Shown: positions 5,701 through 61,749, counted from the first letter of the stretch. The stretch is DNA of 64,000 nucleotides from an uncultured Chloroflexia bacterium (GCA_963774265.1 CAVZDU010000001.1:448001-512000), one strand, 5' to 3'. The notes: generated by a model not told the origin, from the letters alone. Translations and numbers: made by a program.

Positions 5701-6102
5701 ATGCCGATCTACGAATACACCTGTCAAGACTGCAATCGACGCGTCAGTCTGCTCTGGCGTTCATTTTCCGACGCTCAAAGTCGCGAGGCGGTCTGCCCGC
5801 GCTGCGGCGGGAATAAGCTGACGCGCCTGATATCGCGCGTTGCCGTCCTTCGCTCCGAAGAAAGTCACCTGGATAATATGTCCAGCGCAGACAACCCGCT
5901 CGGAGATGGCCTGGATGAAAACGATCCAAAATCGCTGGCCCGGTTCATGCGCAAGATGGCGAATGAGACGGGCGAGGATCTTGGCCCGGAGTTCGAAGAA
6001 GTGGTCGGCCGCCTGGAAGCTGGCGAGGATCCGGAGAGCATCGAAGATTCGATGCCTGATCTCGGCGCACCAGGCGGTGGCGACGACTTCGGTGTAATGT
6101 AG
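5701..6102 (+). CDS. FmdB-family zinc-ribbon regulatory protein
   Basis: MPIYEYTCQDC...CPRCG signature; TATAAT at 5689-5694 lies 6 nt upstream of the ATG (probably leaderless). Confidence 0.85.
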   Translation: MPIYEYTCQDCNRRVSLLWRSFSDAQSREAVCPRCGGNKLTRLISRVAVLRSEESHLDNMSSADNPLGDGLDENDPKSLARFMRKMANETGEDLGPEFEEVVGRLEAGEDPESIEDSMPDLGAPGGGDDFGVM

Positions 6103-6135
6103 GATCGGGCAGCGCAGCCTCCTGCGAGGCCATTC

Positions 6136-6462
6136 CTACACCTGCACGAACTGTTCCACGTTCAGCACGAATGCGACGGCGCCGCCAACGTTGACCTCGA
6201 TTGGCTCAGCCATCTCCAGACCTGGGCCTTCCAGAGTCGGCAGAGGGGAGACCCACTGCGTTCGTCGACGACACACCTGGCGCAAAATCTCAATCGCCTG
6301 GTTCAACTTCTGGTCGTCTGTGCCCAGGAAGAGGGTCGTATTACCCTCGCGTAGAAAACCCCCAGTCGTGCTGATCACCGTGGCCCGGAACCCGGCCTTG
6401 GTCAGTCGATCAAGCACGTCACGCGAGTCATCGCTGCTGACAATTGCCATGACAAGCTTCAT
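6136..6462 (-). CDS. darA: PII-like cyclic-di-AMP receptor (DarA/PstA/YaaQ, DUF970)
   Basis: MKLVMAIV..DD, STTGGFLREGNTT, VGGAVAFVLNVEQF; directly downstream of tmk as in Firmicutes. Confidence 0.88.
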   Translation of the reverse strand: MKLVMAIVSSDDSRDVLDRLTKAGFRATVISTTGGFLREGNTTLFLGTDDQKLNQAIEILRQVCRRRTQWVSPLPTLEGPGLEMAEPIEVNVGGAVAFVLNVEQFVQV

Positions 6463-7154
6463 TGAGTAGGATCCTCCTGTGGACTACCTAGAGTCCCATC
6501 GTGGCCAGGCATAATCTGCCGGACGCGTGCCCTGATCGCCGCCTGCACCTGCTCAACCGACTGCCTGGCATCCACCACCAGCCATCGCTCACTCGCTGCA
6601 CTCGCCAACGCCAGATATCCCGCACGCACTCGCTCGTGAAACTCTATCTCCTCGCGTTCCATCCGGTTCCATTCTGCCGTGTCGCCGCCCTGCTTGCGCT
6701 GCAGGCCGTCAAGCACGGGTAGGTCCAGGCAGATGGTCAGCTCAGGTGTGAGATCGCCGGTGGCGAACGCTGTGATCATGCGCAACGCCCCGAGGTCCAG
6801 CTTTCTCCCATACCCCTGGTAAGCCAATGTTGAATCGGCAAAGCGATCGCATAACACGACCCCACCTCGGGCCAAATGGGGACGGATCACCTCGCCGACG
6901 ATTTGCGCCCGTGCAGCCGAAAAGAGAAGGATTTCGGCCTGCGGCTGCATTTCCACGTGCTCCGGGTTCAGCAGAATGGCACGCACCGCGTCACCGATGC
7001 GCGTACCGCCCGGCTCCCTGGTCGTGATTACGTCACAACCTCGATCCCGCAACCAATCCGCCAGGAGACGGATTTGAGTTGTCTTCCCCCCACCTTCGGG
7101 GCCTTCAAAACTAACAAACAAGCGATGCTCCGGCTGGCCGGCAGGCCACATCAC
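6459..7154 (-). CDS. tmk: Thymidylate kinase
   Basis: FEGPEGGGKTTQ, TREPGGT, CDRFADSTLAYQG. Confidence 0.95.
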   Translation of the reverse strand: MMWPAGQPEHRLFVSFEGPEGGGKTTQIRLLADWLRDRGCDVITTREPGGTRIGDAVRAILLNPEHVEMQPQAEILLFSAARAQIVGEVIRPHLARGGVVLCDRFADSTLAYQGYGRKLDLGALRMITAFATGDLTPELTICLDLPVLDGLQRKQGGDTAEWNRMEREEIEFHERVRAGYLALASAASERWLVVDARQSVEQVQAAIRARVRQIMPGHDGTLGSPQEDPTQ

Positions 7155-23856: not shown

Positions 23857-23942
23857 GCATCCGGGACCTCATTCAACAAAGGAATAAGATCGACCGGTTC
23901 CCACTCCCTTTGCCTCGAAGGTCGTTGAGAACCCGACGGAGA

Positions 23943-24045
23943 AGGGTTTTCTGGCTTGCCCATGCGATTGGCAGGGCCTACAGTTGCGGGACAGCGCCGG
24001 CCTTGCACCGGCTTTCCCCAAATCTCCACCGAATATTATTCAGTT
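23943..24045 (-). ncRNA. Cobalamin riboswitch
   Basis: Minus strand GGTG...GGGAAAGCCGGTGCAAGGCCGGCGCTGTCCCGCAACTGT...AAGCCAGAAAACC (B12 box); upstream promoter TTGACT(24085-24080)-17 bp-TACGCT. Confidence 0.93.
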
Positions 24046-24276
24046 CTTCGACGCCTAGCGTAACACAGGGAGGGGGAGGAGTCAAATGACTTGCGTCATA
24101 ATCGACCTTCTTACACCAACACCGTAAGCTTTGTCTGTGACCAAAGCCACTCTGCATACTGTAAGCCAGACGCCTAGCTCAAACAGAAGAAACCTGCTAT
24201 AATTATCGGGAAGGTTGTGGGCTGTCGCTCTGAGTTAGTTCTGCGCTGAGGACTGCCCATCTGGAGGTTGTCAATC

Positions 24277-41135: not shown

Positions 41136-41151
41136 GAGCGGGGTGCGCCGC

Positions 41152-42249
41152 TCAGGGATGCTGCGCAATTGCTGGCATCATTCGGTGCGCGCTGTAGATC
41201 GTGTTCGCGTGATGCGTGATGTACTCGTACGGCAGATACCCATAGCCGGGCGCCCAGGCCCCATCCCATGCCCATGGCTGCCATGAATTGCGCACCAGGA
41301 AATAGCCCCCGCCCGGCGTATTTGGATCGTCCTGGTACCCGACCAAGGTCATCGCGTGACCGTCCAACACCGGCTCACCGGTGAGTGGCAAGGTGATCTT
41401 CCCCCAACGCGCCATCGCAGGCGACCTGTACCAACTTTCGAAAACAGGCACGGCAAAGGCGATGGTGCGACCTTCGACCAGGCACGTCTTCATTCCGGTG
41501 ATATCGAGGCGGTTGAAAGCCAGCGTTTGTGCGGTGCGATAAGCGGGGTCGCCGTCAGCCGCACTCTCGGGAGGAGGTCCCTGCCCCTCGTCTGACCGCG
41601 GCGCACTCACGTAGGGCCAGACCACTTCGATGGGCGCACCCATCTTTGCCAGGCAGCGCATGCCGAGCGAGAGGTAGGTGCCGGATCGCGTGGGCAGCCC
41701 ATCGTGTTCCTTGCACCACCAGTAAACGTACTGTTCCGACAGGTCGACGTCGCGCGGCGCACTCGCTGCGATTTCCAACTGCTCCCGCACCGCGAGCGCC
41801 GCAAAGGCCACGCATGTGCTGCGGCGGCCCTGGTTGCGCAAGGGTGGCAGCTGATCGAGCAGGCTGTGGCTGGCAGGAAGGGGTGCGCGAAGGGCGCCCT
41901 CATAAGGCGGCAGATCCCTGTGGCGTTGTTGGACGATATCGGGATCGTCCAACAACGCCCCCAGGCCGTATTCTGTTTCGGCAACTTGGAGATCGATGGC
42001 CCTGGAGGATGTGTAGTGCGCCAGGGGGATCAATCGTTGCGCGGCATTCACAATGGGATCGAACGCCGACCGGTGGATGCCCAACGCGGTGGCCAGGCGA
42101 CCACGAGTCGGCTCACTAATCCCGTAGACGCCGACCAGCTCCTGCGCCGTGTTGATCCATAGGCCATTGAGCGTACGAATTTGTGCCGCATTAAGGCCGC
42201 GTACACTGGTTAGCGGAATACCGCCACGGATCAGTTGGGGAGGGGCCAC
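41152..42249 (-). CDS. C1 (papain-like) cysteine peptidase with N-terminal extension
   Basis: RNQGRRSTCVAFA, LSEQY, GHAMTLVGY, VRNSW, GYGYLPY. Confidence 0.87.
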   Translation of the reverse strand: MAPPQLIRGGIPLTSVRGLNAAQIRTLNGLWINTAQELVGVYGISEPTRGRLATALGIHRSAFDPIVNAAQRLIPLAHYTSSRAIDLQVAETEYGLGALLDDPDIVQQRHRDLPPYEGALRAPLPASHSLLDQLPPLRNQGRRSTCVAFAALAVREQLEIAASAPRDVDLSEQYVYWWCKEHDGLPTRSGTYLSLGMRCLAKMGAPIEVVWPYVSAPRSDEGQGPPPESAADGDPAYRTAQTLAFNRLDITGMKTCLVEGRTIAFAVPVFESWYRSPAMARWGKITLPLTGEPVLDGHAMTLVGYQDDPNTPGGGYFLVRNSWQPWAWDGAWAPGYGYLPYEYITHHANTIYSAHRMMPAIAQHP

Positions 42250-42262
42250 GCGTACCTCCGGT

Positions 42263-43442
42263 TCAAATCAGGCCGGTTTCCTTGCCCACCCTCTCGAAGA
42301 CGCTCAGGACGCGATCCATCTGCTCAAAGGTGTGAGTAGCCATGTAACTCGTGCGCAAGAGCTCGCGGCCGGGCTGGACGCCAGGCGAGAGCACCGGATT
42401 GACAAATACGCCTTCATCGAAAAGACGTTTCCAGACATAGATGGTCAGCATTTTCTCGCCGATCACCACCGGAATGATCGGCGTCGTGGAGTTGCCGATG
42501 TTAAAGCCAAGCTGGCGGTAGCCCTTCCGCATGTAGTCTGCGATCTTGCCCAGATGCTCCACGCGCTCGGGTTCGTCGCGCATGATCTTCAGTGCGGCCA
42601 ACGCGGCTGCGGCATTTGAAGGCGGGATGCTGGCGCTGAAGATTATCGAGCGTGCATGGTGCTTGATGAAGTGTACGACCTGCTCGTCGCCGGCGATGAA
42701 GCCACCCAAGGACGCGAATGACTTGCTGAAGGTGGACATGATGAGATCCACCTGGTCGGTCATGCCGAAGTGCGCGGCGGTGCCGCGGCCGCCCCCCAGA
42801 ATGCCAATGGCGTGCGCATCATCCACGAGGAGCCGGGCGCCGTATTTCTTGCACAGCGGGACCATCTCGGGCAGTGGAGCGATGTCACCCTCCATGCTGT
42901 AGAGGCCATCCACCACCACCAGTTTGCCCTTGTCTTCGGGCAGGCGAGAGAGCACGCGCTCCAGTTCCTCCATGTCCTGGTGGCCGAAGCGTTTGGTTTC
43001 ACCGTAGCTCAGTTTGGCGCCATCCACGATGCTGGCGTGATCTTCCTTGTCCAGGATCACGTAATCCCCGCGGCATACTCAGCGCGCTGATGGCACCCAG
43101 GTTGACCTGCATACCGGTGGAGAACACCAACGCAGCCTCTTTTCCTACGAATTGCGCCAGCTCGTGTTCGAGCTGCTCGTGCATCTCGAGCGTGCCGTTG
43201 AGAAAGCGCGAGCCGGTGCAACTGGTGCCATAGCGATGGATCGCTGCGATGGCGGCTTCGCGCACGCGCGGGTCAGTGGTTAGTCCCAGGTAGTTGTTCG
43301 ACCCGCACATGATCAAGCGATGGCCTTTGAACACCGCTTCGGAGCCTTCGTTCTCAGTCAGGGGAATGAAGTACGGGTAGTAACCCGCTGCGATGGCTTC
43401 TTTGGCCTCAGTGAATGCGTATGCCTTGTCAAAAAGATCCAT
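42263..43442 (-). CDS. spt: Alpha-oxoamine synthase, serine palmitoyltransferase-like; frameshifted near 43073
   Basis: [45 protein letters not shown] lysine in STFSKS; AAGGAG SD before ATG 43442. Confidence 0.75.
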
Positions 43443-43452
43443 GATTGCTCCT

Positions 43453-44433
43453 TCAGGAAATATAGCCGTGTTCGACGTACCAGCGATAGGCCCGAGCCAC
43501 AGCGTCGCGGAATGGAAGGATGTGATAATTGAGTTCTCGGATCGCCTTGCCCGAATCGAAAAAGACGTTATGGGCGGACAGGCGCAGTTGATCGCCACTG
43601 GCGATTGGGCGCGCCACAAAGTGGTTAGTCATATCGAGCGCTGCGGCGGCTGGCGGCAATACCCAGGCCGGAATGGTCCAGCGCGGCGCGCGGCGACCGA
43701 CTATCTCCGCAATGACAGCCGTGATCTCGTTGTAAGTCAGATTTTCGCCACCAAGAATGTAGCGCTCGCCGGTGCGGCCTCGCTCTGCCGCAGCCAGGTG
43801 GCCCTGCACTACTGCATCGATGTCGGCCACGCTGACCCCGCCGGGTGGCGCAGCGGGAAGGGGCCACTTTGCCATCTCGACGATCAGGCTTCCGGAGATT
43901 TGGTTGTGATCCCCAGGGCCGATCACAATGGCCGGGTTAACGATGACGGCAGAAAGACCGTGGGCGACCGCGGCGAGGACTTCTTGCTCGGCCAGGTGTT
44001 TGCTGTGAGCGTACGCCCAGCGCTCCTCATCGCGGCCGAGCGATTGTGTTTCGTCGGCCGGTCGGCCATTGCGGGGCGCCCCGAGCGCCGCAACGGATGA
44101 GGTGTAAACCATCCGGGGGATCCCCGCTGCCAGGCAGGCGTCCAGGACCGTCCGCGTCCCTTCGAGGTTAACCCGGTAAACCTCCTCACGACGCGCCCGC
44201 CAATAGGATGAAACGGCGGCAACGTGAAACACGACGTCGCACCCACGCACCGCTGCATCGACAGACTCGCGTTCTAGAATGTCACCGAAAACGCACTCCA
44301 CGTCCAGTCCATCAAGCGCGATCATACTCGAGGTCTTGCGACGCAGCACCCGCACGTGGTCGCCGCGGCGAACGAGTGCGGCGGCGACCTGGCTGCCGAC
44401 GAAACCCGTAGCGCCAGTGACGAGGGCTTTCAC
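43453..44433 (-). CDS. NAD-dependent epimerase/dehydratase (extended SDR; candidate ceramide reductase)
   Basis: [33 protein letters not shown]. Confidence 0.85.
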
Positions 44434-45564
44434 AGAGTTTTCTCGTAGATGCGATAGGTCTTGTAGCGCACGCCGCCAAGACGTTCGATGATTTGATTCA
44501 TCATCGTGTTGGTTTCCAGGATCCAGGATCCTTCAAGCCGCTTGTACCCACGGCGCAGCGCTTCCTCGGCGGTCTCCAGGTAGAAGATAGCGTCTGCGCC
44601 GCGACCGCGGTACTCCTCCATCATGCCCATGATCATCAGACGCACCTGGTCAATGTGGCGCCTGTGCCAGAGAAATTTGGGCAGGCCGAAGGGCCACATG
44701 TGACCGCCGCCCGACCGTTTGAGCGCCTGGTGCAGGTCGGGCATGGTCAGCGAGACCCCAGCGGGTTTGCCGTCTTCCGTTTCAGCAACGAAGATCAGGT
44801 TGGGATCGATCATGGGTTTGAGACTGGCCGCGAGATGGTCGATCTCATGATCGGTCATGGGCACAAACCCCCAGTTCTTCTGCCAGGCGCCATTATACGC
44901 CGCCTTGATTTTGATGACTTCTTCGTCGAAATGCTTCATGTCGATCTTGCGTACGCGCAGACCCTGCTTTTCAGCGGCCTTCCTGGCAACGCGGCGTAGC
45001 TTTTCGGGCGCCTCGGCCAACCCCTTTTCAATGTCCGAGAGCCAGGCATAGAGATCCATCGCCTTTATATAGCCAGCGTTTTCGATGAGATTTGGATAGT
45101 AGCGAGGGTTGTGTGTCATCATGAGCATTGGCGGTGTGTCGAACCCGTCGATCAGCGTTCCCACTTCGTCGTTCATGGAGAAGTTCAAAGGGCCGCGGAT
45201 AGCTTTCATCCCTTCCTGACGACACCAATTCTCGGCAGTCTCAAGCAGCGCATCTGCCACAGCCTGATCGTCGATGCACTCGAAGAATCCCCAGCCGCCG
45301 GCTAACTCGTTGTGCACCTGGTTGTGACGGTCATTGACCAACGCGCCGATGGTCCCCACCACCTCACCGAGCGCGTCGGGCTATGAAGAGCTGGTAGCGA
45401 GTATGCTCGTATAGCGGGTTCTTTTTCGTGTCGAAATAGGCCAGCCGTTCCTCGATCAGGGGGGGCACCCAGCAAGGATCGTCTTTGTACAGCCTGAACG
45501 GGAACTGGACGTATTCCACCATGCCCTTACGGGAATTGACGGGCTCGATGACGATATTGTTCAT
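44430..45564 (-). CDS. GNAT N-acyltransferase of bCerS/YghO type (candidate bacterial ceramide synthase); frameshifted near 45371
   Basis: FPFRLYKDDPCWVPPL, GFFECIDD, IRGPLNFS, GFDTPPMLMMTHNPRYY, NWGFVPMT, EYRGRG, SWILETN. Confidence 0.75.
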
Positions 45565-46418
45565 GATGCCTCCCCTGATGCGACTTCTCTTGAGGACTGC
45601 TGCGCGCGTTTGCGCCGTGAACGGGCGATGAGCCGATCCAGGACCGAGAATTGAAGGTCTCCCAGGAAATTCGCCAGATGTGCGACCGCGGTCATTTCAA
45701 TCCCAGGCGTGATCGAATAGCGTTTGTGCCTTATCCCGTCGACGATTGAACGCGCTACGATTTCGGGTGAGATAACGGTGCCGCCATACACGTCGCGCGT
45801 TTCCGGCGGTTTGTAGGGCATCTCCCCGGCAAGTTGCGGTGTGTCAGTATCGGGTGGGTAGACGACTGATACGTGGATATTGTACGGCTTGAGCTCGAGT
45901 CGCAGCACATCGGAGAGGCCCCGCAGCGCGTGCTTGGAGGCGCCATACGCCGAGTAGCCGAACACGCTTAGCAGCGCCGCACCCGATGCCACGTTGACGA
46001 TGTGTCCGGATCCACGCGCGATCATCCCCGGCGTTACAGCCCGAATCGTATGCAGCGCGCCGAAGTAGTTGATGTCCATCATCTCGCGAAAGACGGCGAG
46101 ATCGAGTTCTTGGAAATAGCCTGGCCGGGAGACGCCGTGCGAATTGATGATGATATCCGGCAAGCCGGCAACGCGCGTCACCTCCGCCACCGCGAACGCC
46201 GCCTGGTCCGGGTCGGCGACATCTGCAGGTATGACACCACACTTTTGGTCAGAGCACTCACAAGCTGCCTGAACCTCGGGCAGTGCATCCGCGAGGCGCC
46301 CTGGTGTGCGCGCCACCAGCCAGACATGCGCTCCCTCTCGGGCGAAGTGTCGAGCCGTTGCCAGTCCGATGCCGCTCGAACCGCCGGTGATGAGAATGAC
46401 TTGGTTACGGAAGGTCAT
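45561..46418 (-). CDS. Classical SDR, 3-ketodihydrosphingosine reductase (KDSR/FVT1/Tsc10)-like
   Basis: ITGGSSGIG, INYFG, FGYSAYGASK, ELKPYNIHVSVVYPPDTDTP..KPPET; start placed downstream of an extended -10 TGtTATAAT (46473-46468). Confidence 0.78.
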   Translation of the reverse strand: MTFRNQVILITGGSSGIGLATARHFAREGAHVWLVARTPGRLADALPEVQAACECSDQKCGVIPADVADPDQAAFAVAEVTRVAGLPDIIINSHGVSRPGYFQELDLAVFREMMDINYFGALHTIRAVTPGMIARGSGHIVNVASGAALLSVFGYSAYGASKHALRGLSDVLRLELKPYNIHVSVVYPPDTDTPQLAGEMPYKPPETRDVYGGTVISPEIVARSIVDGIRHKRYSITPGIEMTAVAHLANFLGDLQFSVLDRLIARSRRKRAQQSSREVASGEAS

Positions 46419-46498
46419 GAATGGAATACTCGGCTGGGTGGGATCGTTTCCGCGAGGTAACGACAGCATTATAACACGCTTATGATCTTATGCAAACA

Positions 46499-49129
46499 TC
46501 AGTTTTCAAGCGCCGCTCGCAACAGCGCCTCCGTAAGCATCTTCGTGTCCAGTGCATACTCGTGCTCCAGCACCGGGCCGACACATGCGGGACAACCGTT
46601 CTCGCAGGGACAGGCGGTTACAAGATCGAGCGCAGCCCGCAAGACATCGGGCATTGACGCGAACAGCTGCTCGGCATACCCCACGCCACCCGAGGTTCGC
46701 TCGTATACGGTGATCGTGGGCATCCCGGTTGCGGAGTCCTGTGGCTCGGCAACGATGCCCAGGTCACGGCCGTCGCACATAAGAAACAGCGGCGCAACCC
46801 CTTCGATCAACGCCGCGACGCCGCCGAGACCGGAGCGGGTTCGCACGCCCGATTCGGCGCGGTGGTGGCAGGATTGGCACAGTGTGACCAGGTTATCCAA
46901 CCGGTTGGCTGCTTGCCAGGCGAGGCCGACCGGCAGGTCTTCTCGTCGGCTCACGTCCGCGACGAATCCGCGAAACGGAATTTTGTGATGTACGTCGTGT
47001 TGGCGGCCCGCCATCTCGATCGTGCCGCAGCCCTGACAGCGATAGCCATCCCGCTGCCGGACCGCATTCCGTGTTGCTGTCCACTGCGGTCCATAGTCAT
47101 TGGGGTCCGACAACCATTCGCCGGCTGCCTTCAGCGCCTCGACGGTGTGCTCGGGAAACGCTAACCAGCAGCCTTGTGTGTCCAGCGTCTGCTCGGGCAG
47201 GTCCACCTCTCCGAAGCCAAGCACTTCGCCCGTGTTGCGGCGTAGAATTTTGTACCCTGTGGCCTGAGACGTCACGCGTACATCGCCCCAGCCCAGATCA
47301 TACGGCAACACCTTACCTGTGGCACGGTGCAAGTCTGTCTCGTCTGCTGCCGACCCGCGCACTATCTGTATCTCGATCTTCTCCGCCGTGATTGGGCGCG
47401 TGTAGAAGTCGGCGTCGATCGCGCGCACGGTGGCCGCACCCGCTTCCCAGTCGAGCTTCTCCACTACATAGGATGCACCCTCGTGCAGGTAGACCGCCCC
47501 CTTGTAGAGCAACAAGGGCACACCTTCGCGGTCCAGCTCGCCGATGACCACAGGCTTGCCGTCATCCCCATGCGCCTGAATGACGACCCGGTCGTTCCCT
47601 GCGTTTCGCAGCCCCAAGGCCTGAGCCGGATTGCCCTCGCCTGCCCAAAAGTAGCGACCGCCCGAAAGGTAGAGCTGGCCTGTCTCAACGAGGTCCGCGA
47701 GCAGTCCCGTTGTTGTAGAGACATTGCCCGCAACGTCTTCACTACCCCCTGGGTAGGAAACACCGAGTTCCTCGGTCTCTTGCAGGGGCAGTTCTGCCGC
47801 CGCGCAGGCGAGATGCCCGGCCAGGATGATTTCATTATCAGGGTTGATGCGCGCATGTTCGGGTGAGCGCTCGAGTAGCCACCGAGGATGGGTCACGACA
47901 TATTGGTCGAGTGGCCCCGCTCCAGCCACGAACACCGCGACCGATGCGCCCTGCCGGCGGCCCGCGCGTCCCATCTGCTGTCGCGCGCTGGCGATGGTCC
48001 CAGGGTGCCCGGCCAGGATGGCCGCGCCCAGATGCCCGATATCGATGCCCAGTTCGAGTGCATTCGTTGCCACCACTGCCCCCACCGCACCCTTTCGCAA
48101 ACCCTGCTCGATCTCGCGACGATCTGCAGGCAGGTAGCCTCCACGGTAGCCACGGGCGCGGCTGCGTGCGGGAGCCGGCAAGCGCTCGCGCAGGTGTGTC
48201 AACATCAACTCAGCCGCGAGTCGCGCGCGGCCAAACAGGATGGTCTGCACGTCGTGTTCGACGAAATGGGCCGCAAGGTCCGCCGACTCCTGGACAGTGC
48301 TCCGGCGGATCCCCAGGTTGGGATCGACCACGGGTGGGTTGTAAAAAAGCACGTGCCTTTCGCCCTGTGGCGCACCGTCCATGTCTGGCCCTACCACGGT
48401 GACCGGCGCCTCGACCAGCCGCTCGGCGAGTTCGCCGGGGTTGGCAATGGTTGCGGACGCGAGGATGAATTGCGGTGTGGATCCTGCCCCGTAGAATCGG
48501 CAGATGCGGCGCAACCGGCGCAGCACGTTGGCGACGTGTGATCCGAAGACCCCGCGATACACGTGCATCTCATCGATGACTACGACGCGCAGCGAGGCAA
48601 AGAACGCGGCCCAGCGCGGGTGCTGCGGCAAGATGCCCATATGGAGCATGTCCGGGTTGGAGAGAATGATGCGCGAGTTGTCGCGAATTCTTGGGCGCTG
48701 GGCGGAAGGCGTGTCCCCGTCGTACGCGGCGGCGAGACCGCCAAGGGGAGTGGCGGCAAGCAGCGCGGTCAGTTCCGCGAGTTGGTCGTGACCGAGGGCC
48801 TTGGTTGGGAAGAGGTACAGGGCACGGGCGCGTGGATCGCTCAGCAGGCGCTGAAGCACAGGCAGGTTGTAGCAGAGTGTCTTCCCGCTGGCCGCGGGTG
48901 TGGCCACCACAACATGCTCGCCGTTGAGCGCCGCCGTGACGCTTGCCGCTTGATGCGTGTATAGAGCATTGACCCCACGTGCAGACAACGCGTTCAGCAG
49001 CCTCTCGTCCAAGCCTGCCGGAAAGGGCGCGAACTGAGGCGCTCGCGCAGGGACTCGCTCCCAGCGCACGACATTGCTCATGAATCGCGGCTCGAATCGC
49101 AGGGCCTCGAGGGCGGATTCGACGGACAT
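46499..49129 (-). CDS. Hrq1/MrfA-type DEAH-box helicase (DUF1998) with inserted HNH domain
   Basis: LYTHQ, ASGKT, YLFPTKAL, DEMHVYRGVFG, ATNALELGIDIG, GRAGR, GGVGY, CPCENGCPACV; HNH insert RDGYRCQGC..DVHH..NLVTLCQSCH. Confidence 0.9.
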   Translation of the reverse strand: MSVESALEALRFEPRFMSNVVRWERVPARAPQFAPFPAGLDERLLNALSARGVNALYTHQAASVTAALNGEHVVVATPAASGKTLCYNLPVLQRLLSDPRARALYLFPTKALGHDQLAELTALLAATPLGGLAAAYDGDTPSAQRPRIRDNSRIILSNPDMLHMGILPQHPRWAAFFASLRVVVIDEMHVYRGVFGSHVANVLRRLRRICRFYGAGSTPQFILASATIANPGELAERLVEAPVTVVGPDMDGAPQGERHVLFYNPPVVDPNLGIRRSTVQESADLAAHFVEHDVQTILFGRARLAAELMLTHLRERLPAPARSRARGYRGGYLPADRREIEQGLRKGAVGAVVATNALELGIDIGHLGAAILAGHPGTIASARQQMGRAGRRQGASVAVFVAGAGPLDQYVVTHPRWLLERSPEHARINPDNEIILAGHLACAAAELPLQETEELGVSYPGGSEDVAGNVSTTTGLLADLVETGQLYLSGGRYFWAGEGNPAQALGLRNAGNDRVVIQAHGDDGKPVVIGELDREGVPLLLYKGAVYLHEGASYVVEKLDWEAGAATVRAIDADFYTRPITAEKIEIQIVRGSAADETDLHRATGKVLPYDLGWGDVRVTSQATGYKILRRNTGEVLGFGEVDLPEQTLDTQGCWLAFPEHTVEALKAAGEWLSDPNDYGPQWTATRNAVRQRDGYRCQGCGTIEMAGRQHDVHHKIPFRGFVADVSRREDLPVGLAWQAANRLDNLVTLCQSCHHRAESGVRTRSGLGGVAALIEGVAPLFLMCDGRDLGIVAEPQDSATGMPTITVYERTSGGVGYAEQLFASMPDVLRAALDLVTACPCENGCPACVGPVLEHEYALDTKMLTEALLRAALEN

Positions 49130-49248
49130 GGGTGTCATTATACTCTACAAGTGAGAGCAAACGTGACGCGTTGACAGAGGCGTGCGCGTGGTCTATCATA
49201 CGCGTCTTGCTGGCCGTGCCAGCGATCAAGTGACTCTATCGAGGATTC

Positions 49249-58550: not shown

Positions 58551-60352
58551 TCATTTTTTTGATTTTAGCGCGGTGACGTCGGTCATCATTTCCGTGACGC
58601 TGACGCGGCCGGATTCGGTATCTGCCCCCATCATCCTGGCCAATTCCGTGACGCGCGAGTCGTTCGTCAGGTGATGCACCTCGGTGATGGTGCGGCCATC
58701 GGTCACGTGCTTGGCGACGTGATAGTGGACATCGCCATAGGCCGCCAACTGTGGCAGGTGAGTGATGCACAACACCTGGTGGCGAATTTCGCCTGCATTA
58801 CTTGTCGCAGCCCTCGCGCCGTTGTGAACCGTCAGTTCCCACAGCTTTCGCCCGACGGTGCCGCCGACGCGCCCGCCGATACCCTGGTCTATCTCGTCGA
58901 AGATGAGCGTCGGTGTCTCATCAGCGCGGCCTAGCACGGTCTTGAGTGCCAGCATCAGCCGCGAGGTCTCGCCGCCCGAGGCGACCCTGGCGAGGGGCCG
59001 TAGTGGTTCCCCGGGATTGGCTGAAACCAGGAATGCGACTGCGTCCAGGCCGTGTGTATCGAAGGTGTAACGGTCAGGGTTGACCTTGATTCGTGTAGCC
59101 GAATCGGGGTCAACGATGGCGCCGCTGGGATCCGGGGTCCACTGGAGGCTGACCGCGAAGCGTGCGCGCACCATGTGGAGGTCGGCTAACTCCGCTTCGA
59201 TCGCCTGGGCCATGCGATCGCCTGCTAAGCGCCGGGCCCCAGAGAGCTCCGCACCCCGCCGGCCCAGGTCCGCCAGCAACTGGCCCTCCTCCGCCTCCAA
59301 CTGGCCGATGCGCTCCTCCGCGTGGCTGATGGTCTCTAGCTCCTGAGCCGCCCTGTCAGCATAGCTAAGCACGTCATCGATGGTGTCGCCATATTTTCGC
59401 TGTAGGGAGTGGATCAAGTGCAGCCTCTCCTCGACCTGTTCGAGGCGTCGCGGGTTGAATTCGATCGTATCGCGGTAGTGCGTCAGCGCGCGGGAGATAT
59501 CGTCCAGGAGTGCGGTGGCCTCGCCCAGTTGCTGCAGAAGCGGCGCAGCGGCCGGGTCGATACGCGCGAGCCGCGAGAGCGCTTGTTCGGCGGAGCCGAG
59601 CGCATCGAGCGCACCGGGCTGCCCGTCATCCGCGCCGGCCAGGTGCAGGCTTGCCTCTCCGCTCAGTTCTGACAACTGCTCGGAGTTTGCCAGCCGGCGG
59701 CGCTCGGCGTCGAGATCCCCTCTTCACCAGCATTGAGCTTCGCGCTGCCGATCTCTTCGACCTGGTAACTGAGTAGATCGATGCGCCGCGCACGTTCGCG
59801 CTCGTCTTGTCGCAGGCTTTCCAGTTCCCTGCGTACGGCGCGGACTCGGCGAACCAGCTCGGCGACAGCCGAGACTTTTCCCCCGAGCCCCGCGTAGCGG
59901 TCGAGCAGGTTGACATGTTCACGTTCGTGCAGCAGAGAGAGATGCTCGCCCTGTCCATGGACGTCAACCAGGAGACCGCCGATATCGCTCAGCAGCGCAG
60001 TGGTCACCGAACGTCCATTGACGCGTGCGACGGAGCGGCCGTTCACGCGCACCTCACGTGCAAGAATCACCTCGTCGCCTTGGTCGCCTTCTAATCCGTT
60101 CTCGGCCAGCAAGGGGGTCACCTTGGCGGCCACCGTGGGGTCGAGATGAAACCTGCCCTCAACCTCGGTGCGGTCGGCTCCCGCCCGGACGACTTCTTGT
60201 GATGCGCGATCGCCGAGCAGTAAGTTAACCGCATCGATGATGATCGACTTGCCCGCGCCCGTTTCACCGGTCAAAACATTGAAACCAGGGCCGAAGGTCA
60301 GGTCAAGCCGGTCGATGATGGCAAGATCGCGAATACGCAATTCGTTAAGCAC
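58551..60352 (-). CDS. recN: DNA repair protein RecN, frameshifted near 59718
   Basis: LTGETGAGKS, DVHGQ, NPGEPLRPLARVASGGETSR, FDEID, CITHLPQ; the frames join at GEE-DLDAERRRLAN in a G run. Confidence 0.94.
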
Positions 60353-60877: not shown

Positions 60878-60898
60878 TTTGTTCGCCTTTCCCCTCTC

Positions 60899-61749
60899 CT
60901 AGGCTCTCCAGCGGAGTCGATCCATCAGGGTCCGATAGAAATAGGCACGATCCTGGACGTGCACGAAATGCGAGACGTGGCGGCTGGCGCACACCTCCAC
61001 CCGGTCCCCTTCGGCCAGCGTGATTTCAAACTGCCCGTCTACGGTGAGGATGGGAGCATAATCGCCGTGCGCCTCCAGTCCGACTGTTGCGCCCTGCGCC
61101 AGGACGATGGGCCTGTCGAGGCTCAGGTGTGGGCAAATAGGGATGACAAGGATATTCTTAAGCTCAGGCGGGAGGATCGGACCCCCGGCGGCCAGCGCGT
61201 AGCCGGTGCAGCCTGTGGGGGTTGACACAATCACCCCATCGGCCCGATAAGTAGTCAGGTAGCTCTGGTCGACCCAGGTCTGCACGGTGACGATGCGCGC
61301 GAGGCCGCCACGGCTGATCACAACATCATTGATCGCCAGGTAGGAATGGTTGACCGGAGGCTTGCCGGAGCGCGTGACAGCCACATCGAGCAGCATGCGC
61401 TCTTCCAACCAATACTCACCCAAGAGGATCTGCCCCAGTGGCCGTTCCCAGTCTTCAGGTGCAATTTCGGCCAGGAAGCTGACGCGGCCGAGCTTGACGC
61501 CAACCAGGGGAATGGCATCGCTGCCGCCGATGCGCGCTGCGCGCGCAACATGGTGCCGTCGCCGCCCAAGGCAACAAGAATGTCCAGGTTCTGGAGATGG
61601 GCGAAAGCCTCTGGCTCGTCCCAGGCAGAGCCGATCCATACCGTGCAACCACGTGCTTGAAGGAACTCCCGCATCTGCTCGGCCAGAGGTCCGCTTTCGG
61701 GCTTCTTTGGGTGGCACAGGATACCGAAGTGTCGCGGAGGATTTTGCAT
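60899..61749 (-). CDS. nadK: NAD kinase, frameshifted near 61543
   Basis: LGGDGTMLR in ORF 61318..61749; GVKLGRVSFL, AIND, ADGVIVSTPTG.T.Y..AAGGP, VDG in ORF 60899..61717. Confidence 0.92.

Follow-up and report, generated by a model that had tools for sequence, protein, structure and literature searches.

Bacterial sphingolipid synthesis is defined by three proteins, Spt, bCerS and CerR. We analysed a stretch of 64,000 nucleotides (hereafter the window) from an uncultured Chloroflexia bacterium (GCA_963774265.1, CAVZDU010000001.1:448001-512000; G000:C1:448001-512000 in our own numbering of genomes and contigs) and describe in it an operon which, most likely, is intact in nature and serves to make a dihydroceramide-type lipid. 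It would encode an Spt-like synthase, a GNAT of the bCerS family and two short-chain dehydrogenases/reductases (SDRs), the classical SDR1 and the extended SDRe. The sequences suggest a variant of the known pathway, in which Spt and bCerS are kept, CerR is swapped for an enzyme of the HpnA clade and a KDSR-like enzyme is added. The closest relatives of the source assembly (G000; 5.5 Mb, 10 contigs, 84% complete) are metagenome-assembled genomes (MAGs) titled Anaerolineae (Chloroflexota). Open reading frame (ORF) calls give five co-oriented genes on the minus strand at 46418-41152, counted from the first letter of the window:

45561-46418, minus strand: SDR1, classical SDR, KDSR-like, candidate 3-ketosphinganine reductase; intact, adh_short domain, TGGSSGIG and YxxxK motifs
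44430-45564, minus strand: YghO/bCerS-family GNAT and candidate ceramide synthase; split over two frames, 45364-45564 and 44430-45380
43453-44433, minus strand: SDRe, extended SDR of the HpnA clade by score and tree, candidate 3-keto reductase; intact
42263-43442, minus strand: Spt-like alpha-oxoamine synthase, candidate serine palmitoyltransferase (SPT); in two frames, 42999-43442 and 42263-43078
41152-42249, minus strand: papain-family (C1) cysteine-peptidase-like gene; Pfam Peptidase_C1, E 2.7e-7

Direct reading of the junctions revealed an ATGA overlap between the SDR1 and GNAT genes (45564-45561), a GTGA overlap between the GNAT and SDRe genes (44433-44430), a 10-nt spacer containing AGGAG between the SDRe stop and the synthase ATG (43452-43443), and a 13-nt spacer with GGAGG between the synthase stop and the peptidase-like gene. 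The four co-oriented genes with stop/start overlaps or a 10-nt gap reported in a preliminary description of this DNA are thereby confirmed. Pfam and NCBIfam searches support the domain identities of the cluster genes, and the catalytic motifs of all four enzymes were found in the translations. Since the order helicase-SDR-GNAT-SDR-synthase-peptidase is found again in relatives of the same genus and the same family, the arrangement is not due to chance. Judged by coordinates, the peptidase-like gene follows Spt immediately in at least 16 of the 25 genomes of the family, and it is a probable fifth member of the transcription unit. Its ORF has 371 aa here versus about 630-850 aa in many relatives.

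In the pathway that we propose, the Spt-like pyridoxal phosphate (PLP) enzyme would form 3-ketosphinganine by condensing L-serine and a long-chain acyl-CoA, and would do so without a dedicated acyl carrier protein (ACP) or acyl-ACP synthetase, as in the Sphingobacterium type. The tandem-GNAT homologue of YghO/bCerS would N-acylate the amine, and the 3-keto group would be reduced by the HpnA-clade SDRe, by the KDSR-like SDR1, or by both, the canonical CerR being missing. Substrates, product and the order of these steps are what we infer from homology and context; what the sequences show directly are the gene identities, the family memberships, the conservation of the operon and the phyletic link of both reductases to Spt. 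The cluster had previously been noted to lack ACP and ligase genes, and the genome agrees: an E. coli AcpR query found no homologue in G000, and an AasR query gave only a weak match of 65 bits.

Enzyme families of the cluster

The synthase is of the Spt type rather than of the BioF or Kbl type, as had been proposed from its motifs, and both the NCBIfam and the solved-structure rankings place SPT first. The intact orthologue scores 525.8 bits on NF047600 (SPT, CFB type), followed by 395.2 on the BetaP SPT model, 365.6 on BioF, 338.2 on Kbl, 335.7 on the AlphaP SPT model, 238.1 on ALAS and 200.4 on CqsA; the two window fragments score 153.7 and 359.9 bits on NF047600. The best solved relative is the SPT of Sphingobacterium multivorum (PDB 3a2b, 8guh; 429 bits over residues 5-388). 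It is followed by Sphingomonas SPTs (287-306 bits), Thermus Kbl/BioF (261), cysteate acyltransferases (226-231) and Kbl (about 220), so that experimentally studied SPTs outrank Kbl/BioF and the cysteate acyltransferases. The GSRFLNGT and YPYF motifs of the preliminary description (the latter as Y-x-YF) both align with the S. multivorum enzyme. DDAH and TFSKS, which we take to be the His/Asp and PLP-lysine active-site motifs, align with the S. multivorum and Sphingomonas SPTs and both lie in the C-terminal fragment of the window. Across 41 relatives, scores on NF047600 are either 498-562 bits, with one copy per genome, or at most 440, for the other oxoamine synthases. Two further oxoamine synthases encoded elsewhere in G000 could serve the BioF/Kbl roles. 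The protein is a candidate for condensing L-serine with a long-chain acyl thioester.

The GNAT gave only a weak Acetyltransf_6 match in Pfam, and sequence searches found no match among NCBIfam models or solved structures. A tblastn search of plasmid records detected full-length homologues with 35-42% identity, E. coli yghO included (35.9% identity over residues 4-377 of 377, E 6e-82). On the E. coli plasmid record the locus reads aminotransferase-ACP-epimerase/dehydratase-acyl-AMP ligase, with yghO divergent; this locus, of the E. coli B type and taken from PLSDB, served as a stand-in for the Caulobacter proteins. We take CC_1154 of Caulobacter to be the gene later named bCerS; bCerS and CerR were reportedly defined in a paper by Stankeviciute et al. 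in 2022. The legend to Fig. 9 of PMC9386255 gives 'aca' (CC_1154, yghO ECD_02850) as required for dihydroceramide biosynthesis. In Streptomyces, Rubrobacter and Aureispira, GNAT homologues are part of spt operons, and in Sphingomonas one lies near spt; over its whole length the window GNAT shares 36-42% identity with YghO and with the spt-linked GNATs of these genera. The window family is as similar to GNATs of other phyla as those are among themselves (30-44%). Full-length homology to YghO and linkage to spt across phyla thus bear out the initial assignment to the bCerS type.

A GNAT profile scan of species genomes, from which the best 80 of at least 594 relatives were kept, placed loci titled Anaerolineae or Anaerolineales MAGs closest, the rest of these 80 coming from Myxococcota, Gemmatimonadota, Zixibacteria, Bacteroidota, Acidobacteriota and others. 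An Spt-like gene adjoins the GNAT in about 48 of the best 80 loci; of the others, several are short contigs. The AlphaFold model of the GNAT (pLDDT 77.5, pTM 0.80), built on an alignment only 9 rows deep, shows a tandem-GNAT fold whose nearest structures are the clavulanate tandem GNAT, glucosamine N-acetyltransferase, MshD and FemX (TMq about 0.6). Such a predicted fold is consistent with amine acylation by the candidate bCerS, without being proof of it.

Other members of the GNAT family were encountered in different settings. A paralogue of 31% identity in G000 (locus L142, G000:C10:157000-169500, ORF 5810-6931, minus strand) is flanked by a DegV fatty-acid-binding gene and by an MGDG-synthase-like glycosyltransferase gene split in two ORFs, and is another lipid context for the family. 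A third paralogue (G000:C1:207614-208743, minus strand; 29-36% identity) is in two pieces. Three Myxococcota loci (L058, L062, L084) have the order Spt-GNAT-CerR-type-GNAT, the second GNAT being more divergent and 40-41% identical to the query. The Diaphorobacter IncP conjugative plasmid pDCB2 (L032) carries a YghO-family GNAT gene with no Spt within 6 kb; its neighbours encode LptF/G-like permeases, CDP-alcohol phosphatidyltransferases, nucleotidyltransferases, a P450 and a nonribosomal peptide synthetase.

SDRe carries the motifs GATGFVGS and YAHSK in its translation and matches the Pfam domains Epimerase (124.7 bits) and 3Beta_HSD (112.6 bits). Its affiliation is with HpnA: it scores 333.5 bits on TIGR03466 (332.2 in the genome scan; cut-off 367.65), a model on which the reductases linked to Spt in E. 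coli and Streptomyces reach only 93-97 bits. Pairwise, it is 41-43% identical over the full length to the hpnA genes of hopanoid clusters (220 bits) and 30-33% identical to CerR-type reductases (66-93 bits). A maximum-likelihood tree was computed from 36 extended SDRs under LG+C20+F+G4 and rooted at the midpoint for drawing only. One clade (99/99) unites all 17 reductases that are linked to Spt/GNAT in other phyla, among them those of E. coli ('epi', the CC_1164 orthologue), Streptomyces, Rubrobacter and Aureispira. A second clade (100/97) comprises ten SDRe-type rows of Anaerolineae (98/93), four HpnA rows (100/100) and a paralogue from G000. The E. coli CerR row and the C3 paralogue row have long branches. 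Among the best 80 GNAT loci, an SDRe-type gene lies beside GNAT or Spt in only two, both of the window's family; the other loci typically have the order Spt-GNAT-CerR-type. No squalene-hopene cyclase was found in the 84%-complete G000 (best 34.4 bits, cut-off 431.1). The extended SDR had by implication been proposed as a CerR candidate, and the operon as uniting candidates for both known reduction routes. Neither proposal stands: the tree sets SDRe with HpnA, apart from the 17-member CerR-type clade, and the cluster holds two non-CerR reductases.

SDR1 matches adh_short with 168 bits. Among 235 matches in the Protein Data Bank (PDB), a hydroxyacyl-CoA dehydrogenase ranks first (119.5 bits), the eukaryotic 3-ketosphinganine reductase TSC10 (8jat) second (99.9 bits; E 2e-27, residues 8-240) and the third reaches 97 bits. 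Its JGI-named homologues among the matches listed are all called '3-dehydrosphinganine reductase', a name given automatically. In the Atlas, its nearest predicted structures after Chloroflexota clusters are eukaryotic KDSR clusters (TM 0.93-0.94 by query). The earlier view of a KDSR-like SDR holds insofar as SDR1 is a classical, Spt-linked SDR that resembles eukaryotic KDSR, whereas the family label itself depends on a narrow margin and automatic names.

Distribution among relatives and alternative readings

The distribution of the genes was surveyed in 40 relatives plus G000; the counts are descriptive, as kin are not independent. The GNAT is present in 38 of these 41 genomes. An Spt-type synthase of at least 498 bits was found in 32, and G000, G007 and G008, in which it is split or partial, bring the count to 35. 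At E<=1e-50, SDRe-type genes occur in 32 of 41 genomes, that is, in 32 of the 35 Spt-positive and none of the six Spt-negative ones, and SDRe lies between GNAT and Spt in all 24 family relatives. SDR1 is more restricted (17/41 at the same threshold: 15 of the 24 family relatives, G000 and one other), and is in the cluster beside GNAT in those 15 relatives and in G000. Nine of the 24 family relatives have GNAT-SDRe-Spt with no SDR1 found at E<=1e-50, nor was any found in the 1.3 kb upstream of GNAT in the four of them that were checked. Outside the family of the window the genes are dispersed in the class, with exceptions: in G031, of another family, an SDRe-like gene adjoins Spt, and an SDR1-like gene adjoins Spt in G203 and G145 (family f18) and in G162 (f20). 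No SDRe orthologue was found in the last three, the best matches having 29-38% identity. In four genomes of other Chloroflexota classes a CerR-type gene lies near Spt. In an even sample of the phylum the Spt type was detected at E<=1e-135 in 14 of 201 genomes (13 of 200 without the unpublished G220), a threshold that misses G000 itself owing to its frameshift.

Because each type alone accompanies Spt in some lineages, we think that both SDR types are sphingolipid reductases, either redundant or specific for the free versus the acylated base. It is possible, if somewhat doubtful, that Anaerolineae make ceramides without CerR and have recruited two unrelated reductases for this purpose, a homologue of eukaryotic KDSR and an HpnA-clade SDR. 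Should the two SDRs act on free 3-ketosphinganine and on 3-oxo-ceramide, respectively, this lineage would use the 'eukaryotic' and the 'bacterial' sequence of reactions in parallel. If true, this would provide a natural system to settle the disputed reaction order, and a first lipid-ketone substrate class for the HpnA family.

Several points weigh against a ceramide pathway encoded by this operon. The case for it is drawn wholly from homology and gene context. The synthase stays below the NCBIfam equivalog cut-offs (525.8 of 640 for CFB, 395.2 of 500 for BetaP, 335.7 of 670 for AlphaP), and none of the 41 relatives reaches 640 on NF047600. GNAT homologues occur without Spt in G030, G032 and G035, and the paralogues within G000 indicate a family wider than ceramide synthesis. 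The KDSR label of SDR1 hangs on 99.9 versus 97 bits and on names that are automatic and not independent, while SDRe is affiliated with HpnA, itself annotated as a sugar epimerase. Finally, the metagenome contigs compared below come from other samples and are 90-99% alike, and they speak for intact frames in the population, not in this very cell.

The strongest competing explanation is that SDR1 alone reduces the sphingoid ketone, before acylation as in eukaryotes, and that SDRe serves head-group sugar chemistry or tailoring. It is suggested by the f18 genomes, where an SDR1-like gene adjoins Spt and no SDRe orthologue was found, and by the sugar-epimerase annotation of HpnA. We nevertheless consider it unlikely. 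Under this explanation the nine family relatives with GNAT-SDRe-Spt and no SDR1 would be without any reductase, and seven of these genomes are 93-99% complete (G012, G013, G015, G016, G017, G018, G023). Moreover, SDRe is the best G000 match of all four CerR queries (69-103 bits), and it also matches enzymes acting on 3-keto/3-hydroxy groups of lipids, namely 3Beta_HSD, SdmB and OleD.

The product might instead be related but different, such as a sulfonolipid-type base, a signalling molecule, or an N-acyl amino-ketone or alcohol of the 1-deoxy kind or from another amino acid. This reading is improbable. It would accommodate the missed SPT cut-off, the reductases that are not canonical CerR and the unexplained peptidase-like gene that would be co-transcribed; 1-deoxyceramides and other unusual forms from environmental bacteria are reported in PMC11334938. 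Against it, the synthase scores some 200 bits higher with a proven serine-using SPT than with cysteate acyltransferases or Kbl, it aligns with that SPT end to end with motifs in common, and the Spt clade is set off by a gap from the other oxoamine synthases. A dihydroceramide-type lipid thus remains the preferred product.

The two frame breaks and the surroundings of the cluster

The GNAT and synthase genes are each split in the window by exactly one extra base, at these positions:

45369-45371, no strand: extra base in the GNAT gene; contig comparison
43080, no strand: extra base in the Spt-like gene; contig comparison and DNA alignment of relatives

Intact orthologues in relatives of the genus and family are single ORFs (GNAT 377 aa, synthase 392 aa). 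The GNAT frame changes between ...FIARRA and GEVVGT.... A DNA alignment of the synthase gene with five relatives revealed a single-base insertion in the window sequence. Positions 42263-46469 were compared with Logan contigs from two studies, four public metagenome runs in all, cover being partial in some runs. One letter is left out at 43080 in four of four runs, and at 45369 (X2, X4) or 45371 (X1) in the three covering runs. These two sites are the only indels listed across the 4.2 kb, and one contig has just two other differences in 151 nt.

Similar breaks exist elsewhere. Against G002, a relative about 90% identical in protein with some 39 kb of synteny, the window has four frame breaks; at another flagged site, near 60889-60908, the break seems to be in G002 and not in the window, and the remaining flags are antisense ORFs. 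The two additional window genes that are split relative to G002 orthologues (605-aa and 301-aa ORFs) are broken near 59717-59720 and 61534-61543, in keeping with about one indel error per 10 kb throughout the assembly. G001 and G008, assemblies of few contigs and 65-75% completeness, have split copies of the same genes as the cluster. G007, a same-genus assembly of few contigs (locus L015, G007:C6), has a single-base Spt insertion of its own, 14 nt from that of the window and adjoining the same GCGC-rich stretch. The two neighbouring insertions may reflect a systematic base-calling error at that sequence context.

Since the extra base is absent from relatives and from near-identical metagenome contigs and similar breaks occur elsewhere, both frame breaks are most likely residual indel errors of a long-read assembly rather than mutations of the strain. 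The opposite view, a decaying pseudogene cluster whose real frameshifts leave the strain with neither Spt nor GNAT, could invoke the density of breaks (two of the four biosynthetic genes within 4.2 kb, where about 1 break per 10 kb predicts some 0.4). It could also invoke the want of source-sample reads, as the best match in a search of public sequencing runs contained 0.17 of the sampled words and none of the matches was an RNA run. We judge it very improbable. Each break is a single extra base with no other indels, stops or deletions in the 4.2 kb, the fragments on both sides stay 86-97% identical in protein to a relative, the few-contig, low-completeness relatives G007, G001 and G008 have different breaks of their own in the same genes, and two further window genes are broken likewise. 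A programmed frameshift was rejected, as near-identical contigs lack the base and the two sites have no common slippery motif.

Two putative signals border the cluster:

46468-46496, minus strand: sigma-70-like promoter match TTTGCA-17-TATAAT with TG, directly upstream of SDR1; 10/12 consensus positions
41136-41153, minus strand: terminator-like hairpin with T-run, directly after the peptidase-like gene; consensus match only

The SDR1 ORF reaches an alternative ATG at 46469. The ATG at 46418 is the start of the intact orthologue, and is favoured by the position of the promoter match. That match is a lead only, promoter-type sites in the region numbering 2 versus 1.9 expected by shuffling; terminator-like hairpins number 7 versus 3.5 expected. 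Directly upstream of the operon, a gene at 46499-49138 (minus strand) encodes an MrfA-type DEAD-box helicase with an MZB zinc domain and a weak HNH match; its position is kept in relatives, and it probably has no relation to the lipid genes. A two-component system lies downstream of the cluster. Elsewhere in the window, a cobalamin riboswitch (RF00174) was detected at 23924-24064 (minus strand; 50 bits versus a gathering score of 31.5). The GC content is flat over the window and gives no pointer to a horizontal island.

Comparison with known sphingolipid systems

Sphingolipid production by Chloroflexota has been proposed before, and the operon leaves this general picture unchanged. Ding et al. 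2024 (PMC11334938) found Spt-like genes in 218 Chloroflexota MAGs and a correlation of ceramides with Anaerolineae, and named Chloroflexota as potential sphingolipid producers. Their 2025 paper (PMC12619533) restates these results, describes Chloroflexota as abundant in sediments, proposes them as major sources of sedimentary sphingolipids and calls for culturing. Our literature search on Chloroflexota or Anaerolinea and sphingolipids, supplements being outside its scope, found no sphingolipids shown in a cultured member. The replacement of the reductase was not described in the literature searched, the supplements of Ding et al. 2024/2025 and Padilla-Gomez et al. 2022 lying outside that scope. 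These supplements may bear on the novelty of the reductase by listing Chloroflexota bCerS and CerR. PMC11334938 used BLASTP at E<=1e-30 against reference CerRs; a search that insists on a homologue of CerR would overlook the reductase of such genomes. Work on the sources of sedimentary sphingolipids would benefit from a defined gene set.

Sphingolipids in a lineage without a typical LPS outer membrane had been considered notable. LpxC and BamA were indeed not found in G000, with positive controls in diderm model genomes. The notability is reduced, however, by the Chloroflexota potential already in print and by monoderm Streptomyces and Rubrobacter that carry spt-GNAT-reductase operons. Two groups dispute whether reduction precedes or follows N-acylation (PMC11087976), and the operon offers tests, of the size of cloned genes, for both reaction orders along with a candidate function for HpnA-like proteins. 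As no LpxC or BamA was found, the periplasmic CerR model (PMC11087976) cannot apply as such to this host.

The operon shares with the Spt-bCerS-CerR systems of Caulobacter crescentus and E. coli B an Spt-type synthase, a YghO/CC_1154 GNAT and an extended SDR, and would follow the same three-step logic. Unlike them, it is without AcpR and AasR, its reductase falls outside the CerR clade, and it adds a KDSR-like SDR and a peptidase-like gene. The gene order also differs, GNAT-SDR-Spt here versus Spt-GNAT-CerR in the known bacterial pathway type. In Bacteroidota the three pathway genes are reported to be dispersed, according to PMC11334938, which cites its ref. 38 for this. The S. multivorum SPT, with its NF047600 family, is the closest relative of the synthase in sequence and structure; it shares a stretch of 12 residues and TFSKS, and likewise comes without an ACP gene, whereas the synthase described here scores below the equivalog cut-off and belongs to a different phylum.

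Single families extend the comparison. SDRe, full-length homologue and sister in the tree of HpnA (TIGR03466) from hopanoid clusters (41-43% identity), differs from it in scoring below the family cut-off, in the lack of any squalene-hopene cyclase found, and in lying inside an Spt operon. Eukaryotic KDSR/TSC10 (PDB 8jat) is likewise a classical SDR and the second-best solved relative of SDR1, which is in contrast bacterial, has no demonstrated membrane anchor and exceeds other SDRs by a small score margin. Parallels in host and layout are the spt-GNAT-reductase operons on plasmids of Streptomyces sp. NBC_01001 and Rubrobacter radiotolerans, compact operons of hosts without a lipopolysaccharide outer membrane, with GNATs 39-42% and synthases 47% identical to those of the present operon. 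These operons differ in their CerR-type reductase, the lack of a KDSR-like SDR, and Spt as the first gene.

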